DNA of 64,000 bases from assembly GCA_963783305.1 (NCBI GenBank), contig CAWAMW010000017.1, forward strand, positions 416,001 to 480,000. The letters are read 5' to 3'. Positions 47,211 to 59,468 of the stretch are shown here, in pieces. Within the stretch, counting starts at the first letter, position 1. Each line of letters begins with the position of its first letter. The notes beneath the pieces were generated by a model. That model saw nothing but the letters and a program-made list of their open reading frames with translations, made no database searches and was not told the origin of the DNA. A program made the translations under genes and the position numbers. Origin of the DNA: an uncultured Gemmatimonadales bacterium (GTDB lineage: Bacteria; Gemmatimonadota; Gemmatimonadetes; Longimicrobiales; RSA9).

Positions 47211-47342
47211 GCGCAGCGAAGCGTCCGATAGCGAGCGCAGCGAAGCGTCCGATAGCGAGCGCAGCGGAGCGTTCGATAGCGAAGCGCAGCGGAGCGTTCG
47301 ATAGCGAAGCGTTCGATAGGGAGCGCAGCGACCGTTCGCTAG
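47209..47342. repeat. Tandem repeat of a ~24-bp unit GAGCGCAGCG(A/G)AGCGT(C/T)CGATAGC
   Basis: Two identical units (47209-47256), two variant units and two partial units fill the gap between convergent genes. Confidence 0.9.
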
Positions 47343-47722
47343 AACGGCATGTCGTCGTCGACATCCCCCGACGGCTCCGGCCACGGCTCGCCCGCACCCG
47401 CGCCCGGCGCGCCCGGTCCGCCCGCGGCGCCGGCACCGCCCGCGCCGCCGTCCGTGATCTTCTCCACTCGCCACGCCTTCACGTCCGTGTACCAGCGGCC
47501 GTTGTACTCCCGGCTCTGGATGTCCACGTGGGCCGTCAGCCGCTCACCCTCGCGCACCGCGAACGTGTCGATGTTCTCGCCCCACTGCGTGATGCAGACC
47601 GGCTTCGGGTAGCTGTCCTCGGTCTCCAGGATGAAGTCCTGCTTCCGCCACGGCCCGTTCTTGCCCGTGCCGGACTGCTCCTCGAGGACCTGCGTGACCT
47701 TCCCGGTGATCGTGTTGTCCAT
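47339..47722 (-). CDS. DUF3127-family OB-fold protein with SSB-like acidic tail
   Basis: ITGKV..SG..W.KQDFILET..YPK..WGE, SREYNGRWYTDVKAWR, Gly/Pro linker, DDDMPF end. Confidence 0.88.
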   Translation of the reverse strand: MDNTITGKVTQVLEEQSGTGKNGPWRKQDFILETEDSYPKPVCITQWGENIDTFAVREGERLTAHVDIQSREYNGRWYTDVKAWRVEKITDGGAGGAGAAGGPGAPGAGAGEPWPEPSGDVDDDMPF

Positions 47723-47844
47723 GGCGCTCTCTGGTCGTTGTCATGATAGGGGTCATCCAGCGGGTCCAACCCGCGCTCGTAGAGGGGTACTCGAAGAGGG
47801 GGAGAAGGTTTCCTCCGCGCCCGCGCCGGACGCGGACGTCGTGA

Positions 47845-48011
47845 TCGCAGCCGCGAGCGGCCGAGGCGCCCGCGAGTGCTGCGAACACCATGACTATCCT
47901 GCTGTCTGCGGCTCTCGACCTCCCGAACCGCACTCGTGGATGCGAACGCCCGGATATTCACGGTCTTTGCAGCCGCCGCTCTCGCGCCCGCCATCCCGGG
48001 CTGCGAACACC
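47845..48011. repeat. Mini-array A: 37-nt palindromic repeats separated by 24-nt spacers
   Basis: Half repeat 47845-47852, full repeats 47877-47913 and 47938-47974, next repeat starts 47999; spacers 47853-47876, 47914-47937, 47975-47998, all 24 nt. Confidence 0.8.
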
Positions 48012-48050
48012 CACCACGGAAGCGCACCGGCAGGTCGGAATGGACGCGCG

Positions 48051-49013
48051 CTATTGCGCTGGCCCTTCGTCCGCGTCAGCCGGCTCGATGGAAAGATAGA
48101 TGGTTGCCGACAGCGGCAGTCCGGTCTCGCGTGGCGGGGCTTCAATGCCGAGACGCGGTGCCCGGGGCGCGGGAACCAGCAGGAGGGCGAGCGCCATGGC
48201 CGATGCCGCGGCAGCGGCGAGGGCGGCCTGCTTCCTGCCCCCTCTGTCGCGCGCCGTGATCAGCCGGATCCGTCGTTCCAGCTCGCTCCGCCCGGAGGCG
48301 AGGCCGGTGGAAGGGAGCAGGGGTGCCCGGCTCGGCCTCCCCGCCACCTCGAGGAGCGCTCGTGCATACGTCCGGGCGTCGCCCGTCGCGGCGAGAACGC
48401 GCGCATCGCAATCGCTCTCGACGGCGCCGCGCAAACGGTGGAGCTGCCACCAGAGCGGAAGCGACCACGGCAGGAGCGAGACGAGAACGACCGCGCCGAG
48501 CAGCAGTCGCGTGTCCGCGGCCCTGACATGCTCGACCTCGTGCAGGAGAATGACCCGCCGGAGGCACGGCGCGGCGTCCAGCACCCACTCCGGGAACACG
48601 ATCCTGGGACGCGCCGCTCCGATCACCCCGGGGCCGAAGCCCGGAGCCACCAGGACGAGCTGCCCCGCCACGGACCGCCTCCGCCACAGCCGCTCGTTCC
48701 GCCGCAGCGTCCAGTCCGAGAGCCGCACGTTCGAGAGCAGGATCAGGCTCACGGCGGCCCATGCGGCCGCAGCCGCCCATCCCATCAAGAACGGATGCGG
48801 GCCTGTCGGCAGCTCGCGCCAGAACGTCGGCTCCACCATCGAGGCGCCACCGCCCAGGAGGTGCACGAGGGGGACCGCCACCGACAGGACCATGGCGCCG
48901 GCCCACGCCCAGCGCGCCGGACGACCCAGCCGCCGAAGCGCACCCTCCGCTACGAAGCCCGCCGCGCCTGCGCCGCAGCCGATCGCCGTCACGTACACGA
49001 TCCAGGCGAGCAT
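48051..49013 (-). CDS. M56-family (BlaR1/MecR1-type) zinc protease / antirepressor without a penicillin-binding sensor domain
   Basis: GPGVIG..RPRIVFP, ILLHEVEHV (HExxH), ESDCDARVL, YARALLEV, LERRI; TGATG coupled to blaI-like gene. Confidence 0.9.
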   Translation of the reverse strand: MLAWIVYVTAIGCGAGAAGFVAEGALRRLGRPARWAWAGAMVLSVAVPLVHLLGGGASMVEPTFWRELPTGPHPFLMGWAAAAAWAAVSLILLSNVRLSDWTLRRNERLWRRRSVAGQLVLVAPGFGPGVIGAARPRIVFPEWVLDAAPCLRRVILLHEVEHVRAADTRLLLGAVVLVSLLPWSLPLWWQLHRLRGAVESDCDARVLAATGDARTYARALLEVAGRPSRAPLLPSTGLASGRSELERRIRLITARDRGGRKQAALAAAAASAMALALLLVPAPRAPRLGIEAPPRETGLPLSATIYLSIEPADADEGPAQ

Positions 49014-49384
49014 CAGCTCTCGCCCCCCAGCTGCTCGTCGATCAGCTCCCTCAGCCGCCTCAGCTCCGACTCCGGCAGGTCGCGCTCCCGGATCAGCTCC
49101 GTCACGAGCAGCGCCGGCGAGCCGCCGAACAACCGGCCGACCAGCCGCCGCACCGCGCTGTGCGCCGCCTGGTCGCGCTCCACCAGAACGTGGTACCGGT
49201 GCGCCCGCCCCTCCGCTTCATGGCCGACGTACCCCTTCTCCTCCAGGATCCGGAGCATGGTCAGCACCGTGTTGTACGCCAGGTCGTCACTCAACCGCTC
49301 CCGCACCTCGGCCACGGTCGCCGGCCCGTCCTGCCACAGGACCGCCATGATGTCCGACTCGCGCTCGGTGAACGAAATCTCCAC
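49013..49384 (-). CDS. BlaI/MecI/CopY-family repressor
   Basis: FTERESDIMAVLW, LAYNTVLTMLRILEEKGYV, LFGGS; GTG start after GGAAGGAGGT. Confidence 0.93.
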   Translation of the reverse strand: MEISFTERESDIMAVLWQDGPATVAEVRERLSDDLAYNTVLTMLRILEEKGYVGHEAEGRAHRYHVLVERDQAAHSAVRRLVGRLFGGSPALLVTELIRERDLPESELRRLRELIDEQLGGES

Positions 49385-49440
49385 GGCCACACCTCCTTCC
49401 GGATCGGTCTCTGCCCCAAGTTGTGTCCGCGGCGCCGGGC

Positions 49441-49464
49441 TGTCAACCAAATCCTTAGTTGACA
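49441..49464. promoter_or_regulatory. Palindromic BlaI-type operator containing back-to-back TTGACA -35 boxes
   Basis: TGTCAACCAA-ATCC-TTAGTTGACA between divergent genes; candidate + strand -10 TACCTT at 49483-49488. Confidence 0.7.
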
Positions 49465-49551
49465 CGGGCCATAGCGACGGCCTACCTTGAACTAAAGGCT
49501 CAGGAATGGGGCCGGCTCCGGCCTCACCATGGGACCCGGACGGAGAGGACG

Positions 49552-50094
49552 ATGACACGACTCGCTCGGACCGTACCCGTCCTCGGTGTGCTCCTCGCCG
49601 CGGCGCTGCTCATCCCGTCGCTGGTCTCGGCACAGCACTTCCCGGAAGACGAGGATCTGGCGGTCATGCTCCGCTACCTGGTGGAGGACGGCGAGACGCC
49701 GGGGATCGTGCTCGGGGTGATGGAGCGGGATGGCTCGTCGGTGCGACGCGCGTCGAAGATCAGCGGCCGCACGCCGCCTCCGCGGGAGGTTGCCGGAAAT
49801 GCCCGTGAGCAGGGGCTGGCGGTGACGGCCGAGGACATGGCGCGCTACGCGGGGACGTACGCGCTCCAGGGGCTGCCGGCTCCCGTCGAGCTGCGGATGT
49901 GGGGGCGGAACGGGGTGCTGATGGCGCAGACGCCGCCGCAGAACGAGGAGCCGCTCATCAGGACGGGCGAGAACACGTTCGCGTTGTCGGACAACACCAA
50001 CATCCGGCTCGTGTTCGACGTCGTCGAGGGGCGGGCGGTGCGCGCGACGCTCCCTATGGGGGGACGCGCGATCCCGGGGATACGGAAGAGATAG
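49552..50094 (+). CDS. Secreted serine-hydrolase paralogue with in-frame loss of the catalytic domain (possible pseudogene)
   Basis: N-terminus QHFPEDEDLAVMLRY..DGETPGIVLG..DGS is paralogous to the next gene, then jumps to a RYAGTY (DUF3471-like) C-terminal domain. Confidence 0.7.
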   Translation: MTRLARTVPVLGVLLAAALLIPSLVSAQHFPEDEDLAVMLRYLVEDGETPGIVLGVMERDGSSVRRASKISGRTPPPREVAGNAREQGLAVTAEDMARYAGTYALQGLPAPVELRMWGRNGVLMAQTPPQNEEPLIRTGENTFALSDNTNIRLVFDVVEGRAVRATLPMGGRAIPGIRKR

Positions 50095-50098
50095 AGGG

Positions 50099-51625
50099 AT
50101 GGCCAGCTTTACGACGCAATGTCTCGGTCCGTTTCTGGCGACCGTAGCCGTGCTCGCTCCCGCGCCGGCACAGGCGCAGCACTTCCCGTCGGAGGAGGAG
50201 CTGGCTCTCCTGCTCCGGTATCGGGCCGAGGACGGAGCGGCACCCGCCGTCGCTCTCGGGCTCCTCGACCAGGACGGCTCCACCTCCGTCCTCACCGCCG
50301 GCGACGCCGGCCCGGGAGCCGCCCCCCTCGGGCCCGGCTCCGTCTTCGAGCTGGGTGATCTGACCATGACCTTCACGGCGACCCTGCTCGCCGTAATGGC
50401 GGAGCGCGGCGAGGTCTCGCTCGACGATCCTGTCGCCCGCTACCTCCCGGAGAGCGTCCAGCTCCCGTCGGTGGGCGGTCGTGAGATCACGCTCGTCGAC
50501 CTGGCCCGGCACCGGTCCGGTCTGCCCGCTGACGCGCCGGAGCCTCAGGACGCGTTCACCGTCGAGGACCTGTACGACGTGGTGTCGAGGGCGAAGCTCG
50601 AATACCCACCGGGCCAGGAGCACGAGTTCTCGCACATCGGCTACGGCCTCCTCGGCCACGCGCTGGCCCGGTCGGCCGGGCTCCGCTTCCCGGACCTGCT
50701 GCGGAGCCGCGTGCTGGAGCCGCTGGGAATGGAGCATACGGGGTTCGCACTCGAGGGGGAGATCGAGGACCGGATGGTCCGGGGCCACGCCCGCGGCGAG
50801 GTCGTCCCGTTCGAGATGCCGACGGAAGCACTGCAGGGCGCTACGGGGCTGCGATCGACTCCGACGGACATGCTCGCCTACCTCGAGGCGAACGCCCGCC
50901 CGCCGGACACCGAGCTCGGCCGGGCCATGCGTTTGGCCCAGCAGGTTCCCGGGTCGGACCCCACGGGGGAGGGCCGGGGGTTCTCATGGCGCCGGTACGC
51001 CGGGGGCGGCGGACGGGAGCCACTGCTCGTGACGCACGGGGGCCGGACCGGAGGATTCACCTCGCTGATCACCCTCGACCGCGAGCGGGGCATCGGCACC
51101 GTCTTCCTTGCCAGCAGCAGCGACACCCGACCGTGGGTCAGTCGAAACCTGCTCTGGCTGGACCCCTGGCCCTCGGAGCCCGCGCACCATGTGGATCCGA
51201 CCATCGCCGGGCGGTACGCGGGGACGTACAGTACGACCGTCGGGCGGTACACGGCCGTCCCGGACGCGGGCCGGTACTTCATCCGGCTCGAGGAAGAGGG
51301 CCGGCTCACATATCAGCGACCCGGGGGCGTCCGGGTCCCGCTCCAGCCCCGGACGGACAGCACCTTCTACATGGTCGGAGTCCCGTACACCCTCTCGTTC
51401 CATGAGCAGGGGGACCGGATGCGGTTCATCGCGTCCCTGGACGAGCGGGAGCCGCCACGGCAGCGGGGTCAGCGGTGGGTCGCCTGGAGGGTGAACGAGG
51501 AAACGCCCCCCCTGGATGAGGCGTCGGCGCCGTCGGCGAGCTTCCGGATCGCCCTCATGTTGCTGCTCGCGGGCGTCGCGGTGGCCGTGGCGCGTTCGCT
51601 CTGGCGGAGACGGCGCCGGGCCTGA
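50099..51625 (+). CDS. Beta-lactamase-fold serine hydrolase-like protein, catalytically degenerate, C-terminal membrane anchor
   Basis: FELGDLTMTFT in place of FxIGSxxK; FSH in place of YSN; HRSGL, LEPLGM and HGG retained; C-terminal TM helix followed by RRRRR. Confidence 0.85.
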   Translation: MASFTTQCLGPFLATVAVLAPAPAQAQHFPSEEELALLLRYRAEDGAAPAVALGLLDQDGSTSVLTAGDAGPGAAPLGPGSVFELGDLTMTFTATLLAVMAERGEVSLDDPVARYLPESVQLPSVGGREITLVDLARHRSGLPADAPEPQDAFTVEDLYDVVSRAKLEYPPGQEHEFSHIGYGLLGHALARSAGLRFPDLLRSRVLEPLGMEHTGFALEGEIEDRMVRGHARGEVVPFEMPTEALQGATGLRSTPTDMLAYLEANARPPDTELGRAMRLAQQVPGSDPTGEGRGFSWRRYAGGGGREPLLVTHGGRTGGFTSLITLDRERGIGTVFLASSSDTRPWVSRNLLWLDPWPSEPAHHVDPTIAGRYAGTYSTTVGRYTAVPDAGRYFIRLEEEGRLTYQRPGGVRVPLQPRTDSTFYMVGVPYTLSFHEQGDRMRFIASLDEREPPRQRGQRWVAWRVNEETPPLDEASAPSASFRIALMLLLAGVAVAVARSLWRRRRRA

Positions 51626-51693
51626 AGCGCCCGCGGTCCGGCCTGGCACCGGCCGATAACCGGATCCAGCGCCGGCTGCCGCGTCAGAACCGG

Positions 51694-51800
51694 GCGGTGG
51701 CCGGTGGCGGTGGCCGGTGGCGGTGGCGGTGGCGGTGGCGGTGGCGGTGGCGGTGGAGGTGGCGGTGGAGGTGGCGGTGGAGGTCGGCGGTGGAGGTGGA
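51694..51800. repeat. Hexanucleotide microsatellite (GGTGGC/GGTGGA)n
   Basis: About 100 bp of near-perfect GGTGGM units in intergenic DNA. Confidence 0.92.
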
Positions 51801-51857
51801 CGGCGGGCGGTGCGCGGGGTGGCGGGGAGCTCAGCCGTGGCTGGGCGGACACGGAGA

Positions 51858-52021
51858 CCGCAGCCGTAGTTGGGCTGGCCTGTGCATGCGGCTGCGAAGG
51901 CCATGCCTATCATGGCCTCTGCAGCCCTGGACCTCGACCGGTCCAACCGCGGCTGCGGACGCCATGATCGTGATGGATAATGCCGCCATCACCATCGGCC
52001 CCTGCCCTCCCTGGCTGCGAA
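51858..52021. repeat. Mini-array B: 37-nt palindromic repeats separated by 24-25-nt spacers
   Basis: Half repeat 51858-51865, full repeats 51890-51926 and 51951-51987, next repeat starts 52013; same family and orientation as array A. Confidence 0.8.
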
Positions 52022-52095
52022 CCCCGCGCCCGTTCGCTCCGATCCCGCGCCCGTGTCGGCGGCTCTTCGCCCGAGGTGGGCGAGACTCTGGGCGA

Positions 52096-52743
52096 TCAGC
52101 ACCGGTAGTAGGCGACCACGCGCTCCCGCACATCGCTCCGCGCCCGCTCCGCCACCGCCCCCACCGCGGGCAGCCCAGCCGGGAGCGCCCACAGGTGCGC
52201 CATCTCGAGCTGCGCATCCTTCGCCCCGGCCCCCTCGAGCGCCGCCCTGTCGATCCGCGGCGCGTACCATTTGGGGTTGCCGCGGGCGTCGTTCAGCGGT
52301 GCGGCCAGCAGCGCACCGGTCGGCAGTTCGCCGAGGATGATCCAGGGCCGGTCGCCGTCGTAGAGCGTGAGGTACGGCGCCGGCACCACCAGGCCGAGGA
52401 GGGGGCCGGGCCACACGAGCGACCAGACCCGGCCGCCCTGGAACAGGCACCGGGCGATGCGCGGGCGCGGCGAGGCGGTGCGGCCGACAGAGCCCAGGAC
52501 CATCCGCTCGTCGATCGCGCCGACCCAGGCAGGCGACCCCGCGTCGTCCACCCATGCCGCCAGCGTGAGTCGATTGTCCGGTGCCCGGAGCGCGCCCGGG
52601 TGCGCGGCGATCACCACCTCCGCCGTCGGCGGCGCGAACCGGAGCTTGCGCAGCTCCGCTTCGTCGAGCAGTACGAGCCCTCCCGGCTGGAGCCGCGCCA
52701 TCAGGTCCGCAGCCGGATCACGGGCTCGATCGAACCAGGACAT
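52096..52743 (-). CDS. Hypothetical protein with possible tandem PemK/MazF-like folds
   Basis: Clean 215-aa ORF with GC3 bias; GDRPWIIL..LLAAPL..LWAL..VGAV pattern. Confidence 0.6.
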   Translation of the reverse strand: MSWFDRARDPAADLMARLQPGGLVLLDEAELRKLRFAPPTAEVVIAAHPGALRAPDNRLTLAAWVDDAGSPAWVGAIDERMVLGSVGRTASPRPRIARCLFQGGRVWSLVWPGPLLGLVVPAPYLTLYDGDRPWIILGELPTGALLAAPLNDARGNPKWYAPRIDRAALEGAGAKDAQLEMAHLWALPAGLPAVGAVAERARSDVRERVVAYYRC

Positions 52744-52960: not shown

Positions 52961-52975
52961 GTTCCGTACCGAGAC

Positions 52976-53030
52976 CAGGGTACGGAAACGCCCCAGCGGC
53001 CTAAGCCCCTGGGGCGTAACAACTTCCGAA
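52976..53030. repeat. Left copy of island-bounding direct repeat (att-like)
   Basis: 52/55 identical to 59414-59468; followed by a degenerate tRNA-Val 3' end (cggccgcggtaggact vs tgggcgcggcaggact). Confidence 0.9.
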
Positions 53031-53097: not shown

Positions 53098-55500
53098 TCA
53101 GAACGAGGCCAGCACATCCGCCTCCGGCTCGGCCCACTTCTGATCGGTCCAGCGCGGCGACCGACTTTCCCCCGTTCGGGCGTGATGGCCGTTTGAACTC
53201 ACCGTTTCGACCCCCGACTCAGCCGTGCCGACTCGCCTCCCGCCACCGCCGCGCCCGTGGGGGGTCGTTTCGGCGAGCGTGAACAGCTGGACCATCTGCC
53301 GCATCCGCTCGGACTGGCTCGTGAGCTCCTCCGCAGCACTGGCCGCTTCCTCCGCGGTGGCCGCCGTGTTCTGCGTGACGCCGTTCATCTCCTCTACTGC
53401 GGTGTTGATCTGGTCCACGCCGTCCGTCTGCTGCTCGGACGCGGCCGCGATCTCCTCCATCACCTGACGAACGCGACCCACCCCCGCCTCGATCTCCCGC
53501 AGCCGATCCAGGACCTCATCCTGGACGGCTACGCCCTGTTCGGAGTTGGCGACGCTGTCTTCGATCAGCTCCGCTGTGTTCTTCGCCGCCTCGGCGCTGC
53601 GGATCGCCAGCGCGCGGACCTCTTCGGCCACCACCGCAAAGCCCTTTCCCGCCTCGCCGGCGCGGGCTGCTTCCACGGCCGCGTTCAACGCCAGGAGGTT
53701 GGTCTGGAACGCGATCTCGTCGATCGTCTTCACGATCTTCGCCGTCGCCTGGCTCGAATCCCTGATCCGGGTCATGGCTTCGCTCAAATGTCGGACGCTT
53801 TCCGCACCCTTCTGTGTGCTGTCCGCCGCCCCTTCGGCCATGCTCCGGGCCTCCTGAGCGTTCGCAGTGTTCTGACGCGCCATGCTGGCCATCTCCTGGA
53901 GCGAGCTGGATGTCTCCTCCAGGCTCGATGCCTGCTCGCTGGCGCCCTGCGCCAGGGATTGGCTGCTCCCGTTGATCTGCGACGCCGCCCCGGCCACCTG
54001 CTCCGCGGCCGCCGACACCTCGGTGAGGGTCTCGTTCAGGTTCTGCGCGGCCTGGTTCACCGCTCGCTTGATCCGCTGGTACTCGCCCGCGTACTCGCCA
54101 GTCATCCGGGCGCTGAGGTCTCGATCTGCGAACCGCTCCAGAACGGCTGCGGCCTCGTCGATGGGAACGCTCGCCGTGTCCAGGGTATCGTTGATCCCCT
54201 GCAGAACGGCCCGATACGCGCCCTTCACTGCCGTCGTATCGGCTCGCTCATTGAGGCGTCCGGTGCGACCCGCTTCCGTCAGCCGGGAGCTTTCGTCCAC
54301 GAGTGTCCGGAGCGAATTGCGGATTTCCTGGAGAACAGGAGCGATCTCGTCGCGGCAGTCTTCCGCGTCTTTCACTACCTCGATGTCGCCGGCCGCGAGG
54401 TTACGGATCGAACCCAGTACGCGGTCTTGCAGATCGTCAGCGAACGTGTTCAGGTCGCGGACGAGGATCCCGAGCTCGTCTTCCTGACGCACCTCCAACC
54501 GCTCGCTGAGGTGCCCGCGTCCGATTTCCCGGACGAATTCCCCGGCCTGTCTGATTCGATGGACCATGCCGCGCGTCAACCAGTACGCCAGGGCGAGCCC
54601 TACGAGCAGTACCGCCAGGCCGACCACGAGGACAATGGTCCGTAGCTGATTCAATAGAGACGCGTAGGGCGCGTGGTCGAGCGCGATCTCGAGGACGCCC
54701 ACCGGGTTGCCGTCGTAGTCCGGGAGAGGCCGGAGCAACACCGCCCGCTCTCCGCCGGCCCGCCGTCGGACCACGACCTCGCCGGCCGTGGCCTCGTCCA
54801 GCGCCCGCCGCAACTCTTCCGGCCCTGGCGCGCCTTCTCCGTCCACCATGGTGGTGCCGCGGGCCTCAAAGCCCTCGTCCATGACCTGATAGAAGGCCAT
54901 GTCGGCGTTGTACCTGTTCTTGAAGCGGTCGAAGAAGGCCTGGTCCAGACCCATCCCGAACTCCACGGTTCCCACGGACCGTCCCTCATGGTGCACGGGA
55001 ACGACCCCGCGAATGCCGATGCCGGCCACGCCGGACTCCAGGCCCCGTATGGTCCGATCCTCCGTGTTAGCGGTCACCACGGTGTGCCGGATGCTGGAGA
55101 GGTCGTCGCCGAACTTCTCGAGCTTGTGCAGGCGGAGGAAAGAGGTGGCAGGAGCCAGATGGAACTGGAACTGCTCGGTGCCGTACTCCTCGCTCAACAC
55201 GTCGAAGACCGGGGTGTACATGGCTCGGAGCGTATCGCGATTGCGGGCGGCGAATGCACTCTGCGCCATCGGCTCGCTCGCGGCGAAGGCGGCCAACGCC
55301 GTGGCCAGCCGCGCCTCTCCGGCGATTTCGGAGGTGGCGCTCCCGAACAACGCCGTCAGTTCCGCATGCTCCGCCCTGGCCACGGTGGCCTGGACCTGTC
55401 GGTAGGCCAGCGTCCCCAGCACCCCTACGGTGAGGACCAGCACCCCACCGATGCCGAGCATCAATCGGGTCCCGATCCTCATGTTCCTGAACCTGTTCAT
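53098..55500 (-). CDS. Methyl-accepting chemotaxis protein (Cache sensor, HAMP domains, MCP signalling domain)
   Basis: QFQFHL..SFLRLH..KFGDDLS Cache motif, two TMs, [42 protein letters not shown]. Confidence 0.95.
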
Positions 55501-55544
55501 GGGTCTATTCCTTTCGAGTCGCATCTATCCCGTAGGATGTCCCG

Positions 55545-56699: not shown

Positions 56700-56974
56700 C
56701 TCGCTTAGCCCCGTTCAACCGTGGTCGTATCGCACTTCAACAGGGGAAGAGCCTCGGCGCTGCCACGTGGAACTTGAGGACAGCCGCCGTCTCTCCGTTC
56801 TCAAGGGGGCGCGTCGCGACAGAGGTAAAGATCAGGACGTAACGACCGACTATACGAGCAGAGGACATTCGAGGCATTGGCGACCAGTTAGGGCGAAAGT
56901 TCGCCATACAGCCACAGGCCGGCGTAACTCGCGCAGCAGATGACCCGCAGTCCGCAGCCGAGAGGAATCGATAG

Positions 56975-59134
56975 GTGATCAGGCTCATGAACACGCGGAT
57001 CGGGGCTCGCCTGATGCTCGGCATAGGCGGAGTGCTGATCCTCACCGTAGCGGTGCTGGGGGGGCTGGCGTATCGGCAGGTCCAGACCACCGTAGCCAAG
57101 GCGGAGCGGTCGGAGCTGACTGCGCTGTTCCAGAGTGCCACATCAGGGATCGCTGGAGAGGCGCGGCTGGCTTCCGCGTTGGCTGCCTTCGCCGCAGCCG
57201 AGCCGAGGACGCAAAGCGCCTTCGCCGCCCGCGATCGCGACACGCTGCGGAGTCTGTACACTCCAGTCTTCGAGGCACTGAGCCGGGAGTACGGCGCCGA
57301 GCAGTTCCAGTTCCACCTGGCGCCCGCCACCTCCTTTCTCCGGCTCCACGAACCCGAGAAGTTCGGGGATGACCTGTCCGGCTTCCGCCAGACTGTTGTC
57401 GCAGCGAATACGGAGGATCGAACCGTCCGTGGCCTGGAGTCGGGCGTGGCCGGATTCGGAATTCGAGGCGTCGTTCCAGTGCACCACGCTGGAAAAGCGG
57501 TCGGTACCGTGGAATTCGGGATGCGTCTGGACCAGGCGTTCTTCGACCGCTTCAAGAACAGGCATGGTGCCGAAATCGCCTTCTATGAGGCGACGGAGGG
57601 AGGCTTCGTTCTCCGCGGCAGTACCCTGGCGGATGCGGAGGGCGCCCCACGACTCGCTGAGTTACAGCGGGCGCTGGACGCAACAGGGACTGGTGAGGTC
57701 GTGGTGCGCCGGCGGGCGGGCGCAGACCGAGCGGTTTTGCTGAGGCCGCTCGACGACTATGAGGGGAAGCCGGCAGGCGTTCTCGAGATTGCGTTCAACC
57801 GCTCGTCCTATGCGGCTCTACTCGATGAGTTCCGCGTCATGGTCCTCTTCGCCGGCCTGACCGTCTTGCTTGTGGGATTCGGTCTGGCGTACTGGTTGAC
57901 TCGCGCGATAAACCAGCAGCGCCAGCTCGAACAGCAACTGCAGAACGCGCAGAGGATGGAGTCGATAGGTCGCCTCACCGGAGGAGTGGCTCACGACTTC
58001 AACAACTTCCTGACCGTGATTCAGGGGTTCGCCTCGTTGATCGAGAGCCACGGAGATGAGTTGCACCAGGAAGTCCGTGAATCCACTGCTGAAATTGCTG
58101 GAGCTGCGCAGGGCGCGGCGACGCTGACGCGTCAGCTTCTGGCGTACAGCCGTCAGCAGGTCCTCGAGCCCACGGTGCTCGACCTGAACGCACTGATCGC
58201 CTCAACCCATAGGATGCTGGTACGGCTGCTCGGAGAGCACATCCAGTTCGACCTGAGGTTGTCGCCGGAGCTTGGTTGCGTGTACGCGGATGCAGGGCAG
58301 CTCCAGCAGGTGCTCATGAACCTGGCCGTGAACGCGCGTGACGCAATGCCCGAGGCCGGACGCCTGTCCATCGCTACGCGCAACGAGACGGTAGACGGGG
58401 CGCGGGCCGCGTCTCATCCAGCTTTCCAGCGGGGGCGCTACGTGGTCATGGAAGTAGCGGACACGGGCCACGGCATGGACAAGGCCACGCTGGACCAGAT
58501 CTTCGATCCCTTCTTCACCACCAAGGCGCCGGGCGAAGGCACGGGCCTCGGCCTTTCCACCGTCTACGGAATCGTGAAGCAGAGTGGTGGCTTCATCTGG
58601 CCGTACAGCGAACCGTCCATCGGGACGACATTCAGGATTTACCTCCCGGCCGCCTCACGCCGACCGTCGGCGCCCGAAGCTACGACTCCACGCATAACGG
58701 ACACCCTACTGGATGGCAGCTCGTGGAGCGTCCTCGTCGTGGACGATGAGGATCCGGTTCGACGTCTCGTCCGGAAGGCACTGGAGCGCCGTGCCTTCAC
58801 AGTCATGGAGGCGGAATCCGGTTCGGAGGCGCTGGCGATCCTGGAGCAGTCGACCGTATCCATCGACCTCCTCCTTACTGACATGGCCATGCCGGCAATG
58901 GGCGGAAAAGAACTCGGCGAACGGGCGCACCAGGTTCGGCCGGACCTCCCCATCGTGTACATGTCGGGCTACAGCAAGGACTTCCTCTCGCGACGGGGAG
59001 ATCTCGAATTCCGAGCCACCGTGCTCGAAAAACCGTTCACACCTGCGCGGCTGTTGGACGTCGTGGCCGAAACGATCGAGGCCCGCGGCGTGGCTGCAGG
59101 GCACGAGGCGACCGATCGACAACGCTCGGTGTAA
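56975..59134 (+). CDS. Hybrid sensor histidine kinase / receiver (CckA-like) with Cache sensor
   Basis: [14 protein letters not shown]-box, [54 protein letters not shown] receiver. Confidence 0.95.
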
Positions 59135-59413
59135 GCCGCCCACCCGTCTAAGAACCTGGCGCTGTCTTCACGAGGTCGATGCGGCACGACGGACCGGAGA
59201 ACGGCAGAGCGCAGACCTCATCCACGGCCCGGCCACTGCTACATTCTCCACTCCCAGATCACACCTCCTGGGAGGTATGGCACCCGAATTACAGGCGTGC
59301 AGCCACACCCTCGACTCCCCAGGGAACTCGAACCTGCGGAAGACGACAGCCCGTTCTTCTCGCTGTTCCGCCAGATCCGTCGCAGAAGCCGTCGAAGTCT
59401 TCCGTAGGTAAAT

Positions 59414-59468
59414 CAGGGTACGGAAAAGCCCCAGCGGCCTAAGCCCCTGGGGCGCAACGACTTCCGAA
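59414..59468. repeat. Right copy of island-bounding direct repeat
   Basis: 52/55 identical to 52976-53030; immediately 3' of tRNA-Val. Confidence 0.9.
59424..59453 (-). terminator. Probable intrinsic terminator of the tRNA transcript
   Basis: GCCCCAG..CTGGGGC stem followed by TTTT on the - strand, just downstream of tRNA-Val. Confidence 0.55.

Follow-up and report, generated by a model that had tools for sequence, protein, structure and literature searches.

The stretch of DNA considered here, referred to below as the window, comprises 64,000 nucleotides from an uncultured Gemmatimonadales bacterium, namely positions 416001-480000 of contig C17 in a source genome (G000) that is 96% complete. 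It carries two short intergenic elements, arrays A and B, built from alternating half-sites and palindromic cores, with array A lying between the 3' end of a blaR-like gene and the 5' end of a DUF3127 gene. Another copy of the element adjoins, on contig C2 of the same genome, the gene of a protein called P0001, a fusion of AbiEi and DUF559 domains, and the relation between the arrays and this class of protein is the subject of this text. The arrays, their parts and this gene are as follows:

47840..48011, plus strand: array A, whose six half-sites alternate in orientation and form two palindromic cores of 37 bp, with three linkers of 24 bp; a gene-less (orphan) copy
47877..47913, no strand assigned: core 1 of array A, composed of half-site (18), one base and half-site (18)
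47938..47974, no strand assigned: core 2 of array A
51853..52026, plus strand: array B, with six half-sites and linkers of 24, 24 and 25 bp; an orphan copy between convergent genes
51890..51926, no strand assigned: core 1 of array B, the best palindrome
51951..51987, no strand assigned: core 2 of array B, its right half-site degenerate
C2:486959-487873, outside the window: P0001, an AbiEi-DUF559 fusion of 304 aa with the Pfam domains AbiEi_4 (N-terminal) and DUF559/MTES_1575 (C-terminal)

An earlier note on this DNA had described two related repeat elements here, and both were found at the claimed positions and in the same orientation, the cores measuring 37 nt and the linkers 24, 24 and 24 nt in array A and 24, 24 and 25 nt in array B; the copy that it singled out as the best repeat, 51890-51926, is indeed palindromic. 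In window coordinates the half-site anchors are <47852, >47877, <47913, >47938, <47974 and >47999 for array A and <51865, >51890, <51926, >51951, <51987 and >52013 for array B, the half-sites of both arrays share the consensus GGCTGCRAA-NN-CCAKGAY, and the period is 61. Each half-site consists of two conserved blocks about one turn apart, mirrored about one central base. The resemblance that the note saw between positionally equivalent spacers also holds, the middle linkers of six-site arrays having a mean identity of 0.56 versus 0.42 when shuffled. A promoter and terminator scan gave nothing at the arrays, and they are absent from the 20 largest repeat families listed by a general repeat search. 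Short tandem repeats (12/24-bp units and GGTGGC runs) occur near both arrays, at 47216-47340 and 51695-51800, and similar simple repeats, which perhaps mark repair-prone sites, flank many AbiEi-DUF559 family genes and arrays.

The two elements had been proposed to belong to a repeat family, and a search of the genome and its relatives brought further copies to light. With an array profile, five full copies are found in the source genome, namely A, B and three on contig C2 at 474.6, 480.9 and 486.7 kb, all at E values of 1e-39 to 1e-45 against a profile built from these same five copies, with the next-best match elsewhere at E 0.078. Chains of six sites at the real spacing number four in this genome and 0 at each of 174 control spacings, a count that leaves out array B by its two-mismatch rule. 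In total 25 arrays were collected, 5 from G000, 2 from G005, 3 from G014 and 15 from G378 (same coordinates as G097), where the pattern matches 55 times against 2 in the control. Exactly six half-sites are present in 18 of them, or in 19 when array B, whose fifth site has three mismatches, is counted; the G014 arrays are longer, with 9-14 sites in near-identical units. Core length is 37 bp in 50 of 58 cores, with 38 bp in G014 only, linkers measure 24 bp (n=52) or 25 bp (n=27), and most arrays are solitary, hundreds of kb apart. Single-match pattern loci were re-scanned, 14 in other family genomes and four more, and are treated as chance because none gave a profile match, and a lone pattern match on contig C34 of G014 was likewise rejected as an array. 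The IMG/VR collection yielded one isolated pattern match, with neither array nor gene, and protein matches to the nuclease domain only (29-45%), so no viral carrier was found.

The gene of P0001 lies next to the array copy at 486.7 kb, which begins about 110 bp past its stop codon, and the three C2 copies trail it at steps of about 6 kb in one orientation. Its AlphaFold model (pLDDT, the predicted local distance difference test, 84.6) resembles AbiEi (6y8q, E 3e-6) and Rv2827c (1zel) over about 200 residues, and is also predicted to share the fold of the Vsr-like nuclease I-Bth0305I (3r3p) and of DUF559 (3hrl) over about 100 residues. The putative catalytic residues E206, D233, E244, D246, H251 and D260 show no variation among all 24 homologues aligned, these being the ones with at least 51% identity among 105 matches, and the ratio of nonsynonymous to synonymous substitution rates among three orthologues is 0.20-0.25, which indicates purifying selection. 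The neighbours of P0001 are MFS and M3 peptidase genes; no DUF1814 toxin gene stands alongside, nor was one seen beside the clade gene in any of the four array-bearing genomes, by Pfam scan in G000 and by reading of translations elsewhere. The earlier note had guessed at a linked DUF559/Vsr gene, which the fusion gene on contig C2 bears out, and its idea of an undescribed REP/REPIN-like family tied to a trans-acting nuclease agrees with the dispersed copies and this linked gene. A separate motif, CCxGCCATGGxxGxGCCC, lies upstream of P0001 (in the C2:487900 region) and, across clades, of 21 family genes in 100, mostly at 15-90 nt from the gene, where its genome frequency would predict about 2 per 100; it could serve as a promoter element, or else mark the left edge of the gene unit.

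The closest relatives of P0001 with genomic context, in G005 (79% identity), G378 (locus L011, 78%) and G014 (57%), each have the same array downstream, so that the gene-linked array follows the clade gene in 4 of 4 genomes and precedes it in none. Clade gene and array sit together at four unrelated loci, where the gene is free-standing and the surrounding genes differ from one locus to the next. Among 73 family genomes, at least three pattern matches are present only in G000 (11), G005 (3) and G014 (19), with 1-2 matches in 14 others, as in the reversed-pattern control, and proteins at least 57% identical to P0001 are confined to the same three genomes, the next reaching 48%. In a sample of 401 genomes of the phylum, the strict pattern is found in two, G000 and G378, and the clade protein in the same two. 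The four array-linked proteins form a clade with 100/100 support in a tree of 45 rows, 32 of them genome loci and 13 chosen from 80 metagenome loci for their periodic flanks. Gene and array are very probably functional partners. G378 belongs to another family, and 5 of 5 congeners have neither the clade protein nor the strict pattern; moreover, the identity between G000 and G378 is 78% for the P0001 protein versus 74% for GuaA and 50% for MraZ. Because the congeners lack both partners and the protein is more conserved than these two, the sequences point to horizontal arrival of the clade gene in G378. Plasmids gave one distant homologue in 72,556 records, and a metagenome scan gave only relatives of 38-49% identity to P0001, which were used for a family-wide test and not for the clade test.

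This partnership appears to extend to other members of the family. The source genome encodes six AbiEi-DUF559 paralogs, all on contig C2 within about 570 kb (C2:51.7k-622k), one of them frameshifted (C2:104616-105494), and 4 of the 5 others than P0001 have a different 61-63-bp periodic or palindromic array nearby, three of these with gene-less copies elsewhere. The predicted recognition helix also differs between paralogs, being of SRGAIEHRL type or of S-R--QYRL type. Further gene-less arrays of 61-63-bp period in this genome lie at C17:212.0k, C15:374.4k, C2:401.1k, C7:88.7k and C11:33.0k, as well as at C16:129.2k, 138.3k and 317.7k and C15:405.1k, and several of them resemble the arrays of other AbiEi-DUF559 paralogs. 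Two more AbiEi_4 matches missed by the P0001 search (C7:253035 and C17:320740) represent other AbiEi-type genes. Family-wide, a self-match lag of 59-63 is the best one in 40 of 181 family-gene flanks, versus 142 of 2678 control flanks from the source genome and 2 of 51 within-locus controls, and a best lag of 61-62 is seen in 22 family-gene flanks versus 30 controls; the 181 flanks come from the genome loci and 80 metagenome loci after 4 duplicates and flanks shorter than 250 nt were dropped. A second clade (100/99 support) has in common a dispersed array of GGGGA type, with many copies in G004, G006, G079 and G000, and the single contig of G079 (family f1) has 73 matches to this pattern and a family gene 300 bp from one array. 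This clade was picked by comparing flank similarity with protein similarity, a measure confounded by shared neighbour genes and rejected for any other use. An actinobacterial homologue (32%) has a 41-bp palindrome on either side, the two copies being inverted relative to each other.

All arrays are intergenic, and among the 24 with both neighbours called, by a crude gene caller, 11 lie between convergent, 10 between tandem and 3 between divergent genes, a placement that differs from the 124 convergent, 532 tandem and 172 divergent gaps of G000 (Fisher p 4e-4). Their arrival can be followed best in G378, where the mraZ/TPR gene pair carries an array of about 200 bp and 5 of 5 congeners are syntenic without it; by this comparison the array at the site is a gain without cargo. 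At the left junction of this inserted array, upstream of mraZ, a conserved host motif is duplicated in inverted form (L108:1430-1490), a duplication missing in the five congeners and possibly a scar of fold-back repair. Elsewhere in this genome, an array and its flanks of about 140 and 50 nt, 365 nt in all, recur with 95% identity at two distant sites whose neighbouring genes differ on both sides, and at one of them the segment reaches into the final codons of a neighbour. The imprecise ends of this recent copy suggest repair-mediated copying and not the work of a precise transposase. Flanking DNA or cargo may sometimes be transferred along with an array, given that a truncated and a full array bracket an 850-bp module of XRE and membrane genes in G378 and that a 1.43-kb stretch at guaA, with an array and one gene, is missing in one congener, where the flanks are joined.

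We therefore take it as rather probable that arrays A and B are copies, without a gene of their own, of a dispersed repeat associated with one AbiEi-DUF559 clade, whose protein binds and cuts the arrays and whose repeats are spread by repair. In the proposed course of events, the AbiEi fold would bind each half-site as duplex DNA, one monomer per site of about 23 bp, by analogy with AbiEi and Rv2827c, and the folds would lie on one face of the duplex and the nuclease domains would pair across the core, by analogy with I-Bth0305I. The Vsr-like domains would then nick or cut in or beside the array, host repair would copy it, sometimes with flanking DNA, to new intergenic sites, and unequal exchange would alter the number of units. 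The accessible parts of the relevant papers describe AbiEi as binding two 23-bp inverted repeats with one monomer per site (PMC3985639), Rv2827c as binding four 23-bp inverted repeats with gaps of 13 and 4 bp (PMC7319586), and I-Bth0305I as a dimer covering about 60 bp around a pseudo-palindrome (PMC3239194). From the published spacings we sum the Rv2827c operator to 23+13+23+4 = 63 against 23+1+23+14 = 61 for the array, and both are tandem series of alternating inverted sites, with a repeat of 63 bp there and of 61-62 bp here. P0001 shares the predicted winged helix-turn-helix and C-terminal domain fold of its N-terminal 200 residues with these type IV antitoxins (6y8q, 1zel); it differs in its nuclease fusion, in having no DUF1814 toxin gene alongside and in sites that are downstream and dispersed instead of confined to a promoter. 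With the EDxHD homing endonuclease I-Bth0305I and with DUF559 it has in common the predicted catalytic fold and the conserved E/D/H/D residues, whereas its DNA-binding domain is another one, no intron or intein is involved, and the putative target accompanies the gene instead of marking an empty allele.

At the level of the genome, the nearest parallel is with the REP/BIME/REPIN-RAYT systems or REPtrons, in which, according to the portions of PMC8266576, PMC3116915 and PMC3733652 at hand, an enzyme gene stands beside its own palindromic repeats, gene-less intergenic copies cluster near the gene, several gene-repeat pairs may share a genome with a sequence of their own each, and strains gain copies at new sites. 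The short dispersed intergenic palindromes of REP-RAYT systems, often in inverted tandem clusters, are likewise present here. The differences are an AbiEi fold with a Vsr-like nuclease in place of the HUH Y1 transposase, the lack of a GTAG tag and of hairpin covariation, a phased geometry that is fixed at 37 + 24/25 bp, with six half-sites in most arrays, and a low copy number of 2-15 per genome. A REP/RAYT-like system, selfish or domesticated and run by an unrelated nuclease, is accordingly the description that we favour, with reasonable rather than high confidence. The wider reading, that AbiEi-DUF559 fusions are catalytic partners of an undescribed class of mobile repeats, each enzyme recognizing a duplex array of its own with six sites in helical phase (about 61 bp or six turns), cutting there and causing repair to spread the array, the enzyme itself from one bacterial family to another and, on occasion, genes nearby, is put forward tentatively, its chances being slightly short of even.

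Several observations weigh against these readings. Array anatomy, gene linkage, co-occurrence, an intact enzyme, arrival at an empty site, imprecise copying and paralog-specific arrays are all read directly from the genomes, and the role of the enzyme in copying is argued from association and analogy. A best lag of 59-63 is not seen in 141 of the 181 family-gene flanks, and some genes may have no array, although the lag test under-counts because L011 and L013, loci with real arrays, fall among the non-scoring flanks. A 53% paralog within G378 (L288) and a 53% relative (L012, in G098) are without an array of the same type, the phylum protein scan scored five candidates per genome, and the four genomes represent at most a few independent events because kin are not independent. 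For the second clade, G017 has three tandem GGGGA-type matches away from the listed family genes and G003 has the protein with 0 strict matches, and within the second family protein identity fails to separate the array-bearing genomes cleanly. The empty site is the single clean one among three loci with usable or partial synteny, a comparison at two further G378 loci having been uninformative, and the congeners are only about 70-80% identical in DNA. The half-site length of 23 bp is assumed, conservation past 18 bp being weak for inner sites, and one core position pair, 11:27, does covary (p 0.0055, uncorrected).

The arrays could also act as single-stranded hairpins or structured RNA, either as REP/REPIN elements moved by a RAYT or as signals that stabilize or terminate mRNA, with the AbiEi-DUF559 gene as a hitch-hiker. 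Stable predicted folds, the intergenic, convergent placement and weak Y1_Tnp matches, two in G000 and one in G005, speak for this, and single-strand folding is stronger than in shuffles (z -4.5 for B and -2.2 for A), as expected of any palindromic array; yet the core arms show no compensatory change, with 549 Watson-Crick cells versus 549.5 shuffled in 41 cores when G014 is left out and 624 paired cells versus 614.6 with it added, a covariation score for seven sequences is reached by 348 of 500 shuffles, and the linker ends have no complementarity, unlike REPIN spacers, for which compensatory change and complementary ends are described in the part of PMC3116915 consulted. The lack of covariation in the core arms favours half-sites that act as independent protein-binding sites on duplex DNA over a selected hairpin, and the structured-RNA part of the earlier note's proposal is not supported. 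Rfam has no family at gathering score for the arrays, its matches in the window being two tRNAs only, GTAG is found at 1 of 50 array ends (CGTC tags left out of the count), and the Y1_Tnp matches are all far from the arrays, with none found in G014 and G378, the array-richest genomes; we consider this explanation very improbable. Still less credible, and largely refuted, is a reading as CRISPR mini-arrays, degenerate or orphan, or as arrays of guide RNAs, in either case with spacers that were acquired, to which the length-conserved repeat/spacer look and the palindromic repeats, as in CRISPR arrays, and a cas1 gene on the same contig as a G014 array, 54 kb away, lend some appearance. No cas1 was found in the other three array-bearing genomes, G000, G005 and G378, the linkers within a G014 array are almost identical and those at the same position in different arrays are homologous, as inherited and not acquired sequences would be, cores diverge within an array, arrays end in half-cores and disperse as whole units, and a BLAST search of both arrays gave nothing significant in 50,697 phage records (one match, E 0.6), in a collection that samples such hosts poorly. 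The arrays are not CRISPRs, and the earlier label of CRISPR-like falls away.

The main rival keeps the same partnership and has it serve the host, the arrays being operator or loading sites that park, regulate or localize the protein, in autoregulation, a small regulon, chromosome organization or the holding of a sequestered defence nuclease released on stress, and being copied by ordinary recombination. It would fit with the action of AbiEi and Rv2827c as repressors of transcription through 23-bp inverted repeats, as the available text of PMC3985639 and PMC7319586 has it, with the 60-62-bp periodicity that lies upstream of many family members, with purifying selection on the clade gene and with the several arrays beside small regulator genes, family names of which were partly read from translations. 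Within the clade, however, the gene-linked array is always downstream, dispersed copies favour convergent gene ends with no enrichment at divergent promoters, array neighbours differ among genomes, and G378, a likely recipient by transfer, has 15 arrays when its congeners have none, so that we hold this rival to be unlikely. More doubtful still is the idea that the arrays are recombination sites delimiting cassettes, comparable to integrons or dif modules, with the bla module as one cassette that either the nuclease or the host, through recombination of direct repeats, would move. The direct orientation of A and B, 4 kb apart, the regular steps of the three C2 copies behind the gene, the bracketed XRE module, the joined guaA flanks and another blaI/blaR pair adjoining an array in G378 (L211:3210-5720, about 10 kb upstream of the cognate gene) would suit it. 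Set against these are a second bla-blaI-blaR module of the source genome (C2:537586-540625; 52/79/51% identity) with no array, 0 of 13 other bla-homologue loci with an array in 1.5-kb flanks, including a blaI/blaR-linked locus with short flanks, the solitary state of most arrays and the mraZ site that gained an array alone; four sequencing runs of patchy cover gave no contig joining the flanks across the bla module, and two short contigs from the runs cover array A at its present position, one with 1 difference and one with 8. Compared with integrons and attC sites, occasional cargo is suggested by two G378 loci, and elsewhere there are the module without arrays and the array without cargo; an IntI tyrosine recombinase is not evident among the genes called around the C2 cluster, though no search was aimed at it.

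Our preferred reading of A and B as copies that belong with the AbiEi-DUF559 clade leaves the genes around them as neighbours, which are listed below:

47339..47722, minus strand: DUF3127 gene on the outer side of array A; an array is absent from all 4 orthologous loci in the genus
48051..49013, minus strand: BlaR1-like peptidase M56 gene (PF05569, E 3e-15), far below the blaR1 NCBIfam cut-off; a neighbour and not part of the repeat system
49013..49390, minus strand: BlaI/MecI/CopY-family repressor gene, Penicillinase_R (PF03965, E 2e-32); a neighbour
49552..50094, plus strand: internally deleted paralog of a lactamase-fold + DUF3471 protein, with no Pfam match; a neighbour
50099..51625, plus strand: beta-lactamase-fold (serine hydrolase) gene (PF00144, E 1e-53); a neighbour
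52096..52743, minus strand: hypothetical gene on the outer side of array B; an array is absent from both orthologous loci

In the deleted paralog, residues 22-63 match the N-terminus and residues 69-180 the C-terminal part of longer paralogs, the N-terminal 60 residues being joined in frame to the C-terminal domain. Since the second bla module, the 13 loci and the outer-gene orthologues are all without arrays, a cassette is not needed to explain the arrangement, and the BlaR-BlaI module most likely lies merely between two independently placed array copies, contrary to the suggestion that the arrays mark its ends. In the organism's own genus, the genes that flank the window's arrays are not syntenic in the relatives found. 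Beyond array B, a direct repeat of 69 nt (88% identity, 6.4 kb apart, at 52962-53030 and 59400-59468), whose second copy adjoins a tRNA gene, brackets a block of chemotaxis-receptor, porin and histidine-kinase genes, and a 947-nt inverted duplication (54570-55516 and 56959-57905) is common to the two sensor genes of this block, which may be a tRNA-linked island.

A literature search, with most subscription journals and supplements outside its reach, found no paper that links AbiEi-DUF559 genes to repeats, and the accessible parts of PMC2267715, PMC3632139 and PMC3710099 mention unnamed repeat families or these domains with no link between gene and repeat; related repeats could be present among the family sequences of PMC2267715 and in the REPtron list of PMC3733652, which lay outside this comparison. 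The novelty lies in the pairing of enzyme and repeat, the behaviour at genome level resembling REP/RAYT and the mechanism being a proposal. AbiEi-DUF559 fusions form a large family, with no known substrate, that is routinely mis-labelled as 'type IV antitoxin' or 'very-short-patch-repair endonuclease', and one of its clades now has a precise candidate DNA target, with sister clades showing different targets of the same geometry. Consequently, binding, cleavage and specificity become directly testable with short oligonucleotides, and G079 is the best genome for studying the spread of GGGGA-type arrays. Arrays of this type probably also lead to false calls of orphan CRISPRs. Should the enzyme spread the arrays, this would explain the origin of REP-like repeats in genomes without a RAYT and would provide a new route from regulatory operator to selfish element. 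The family would then stand beside REP/RAYT as a second system of its kind with unrelated chemistry, having a toxin-antitoxin operator and a Vsr nuclease as building blocks, and its many natural enzyme-site pairs would offer a readable recognition code and a natural panel of long-site nucleases.

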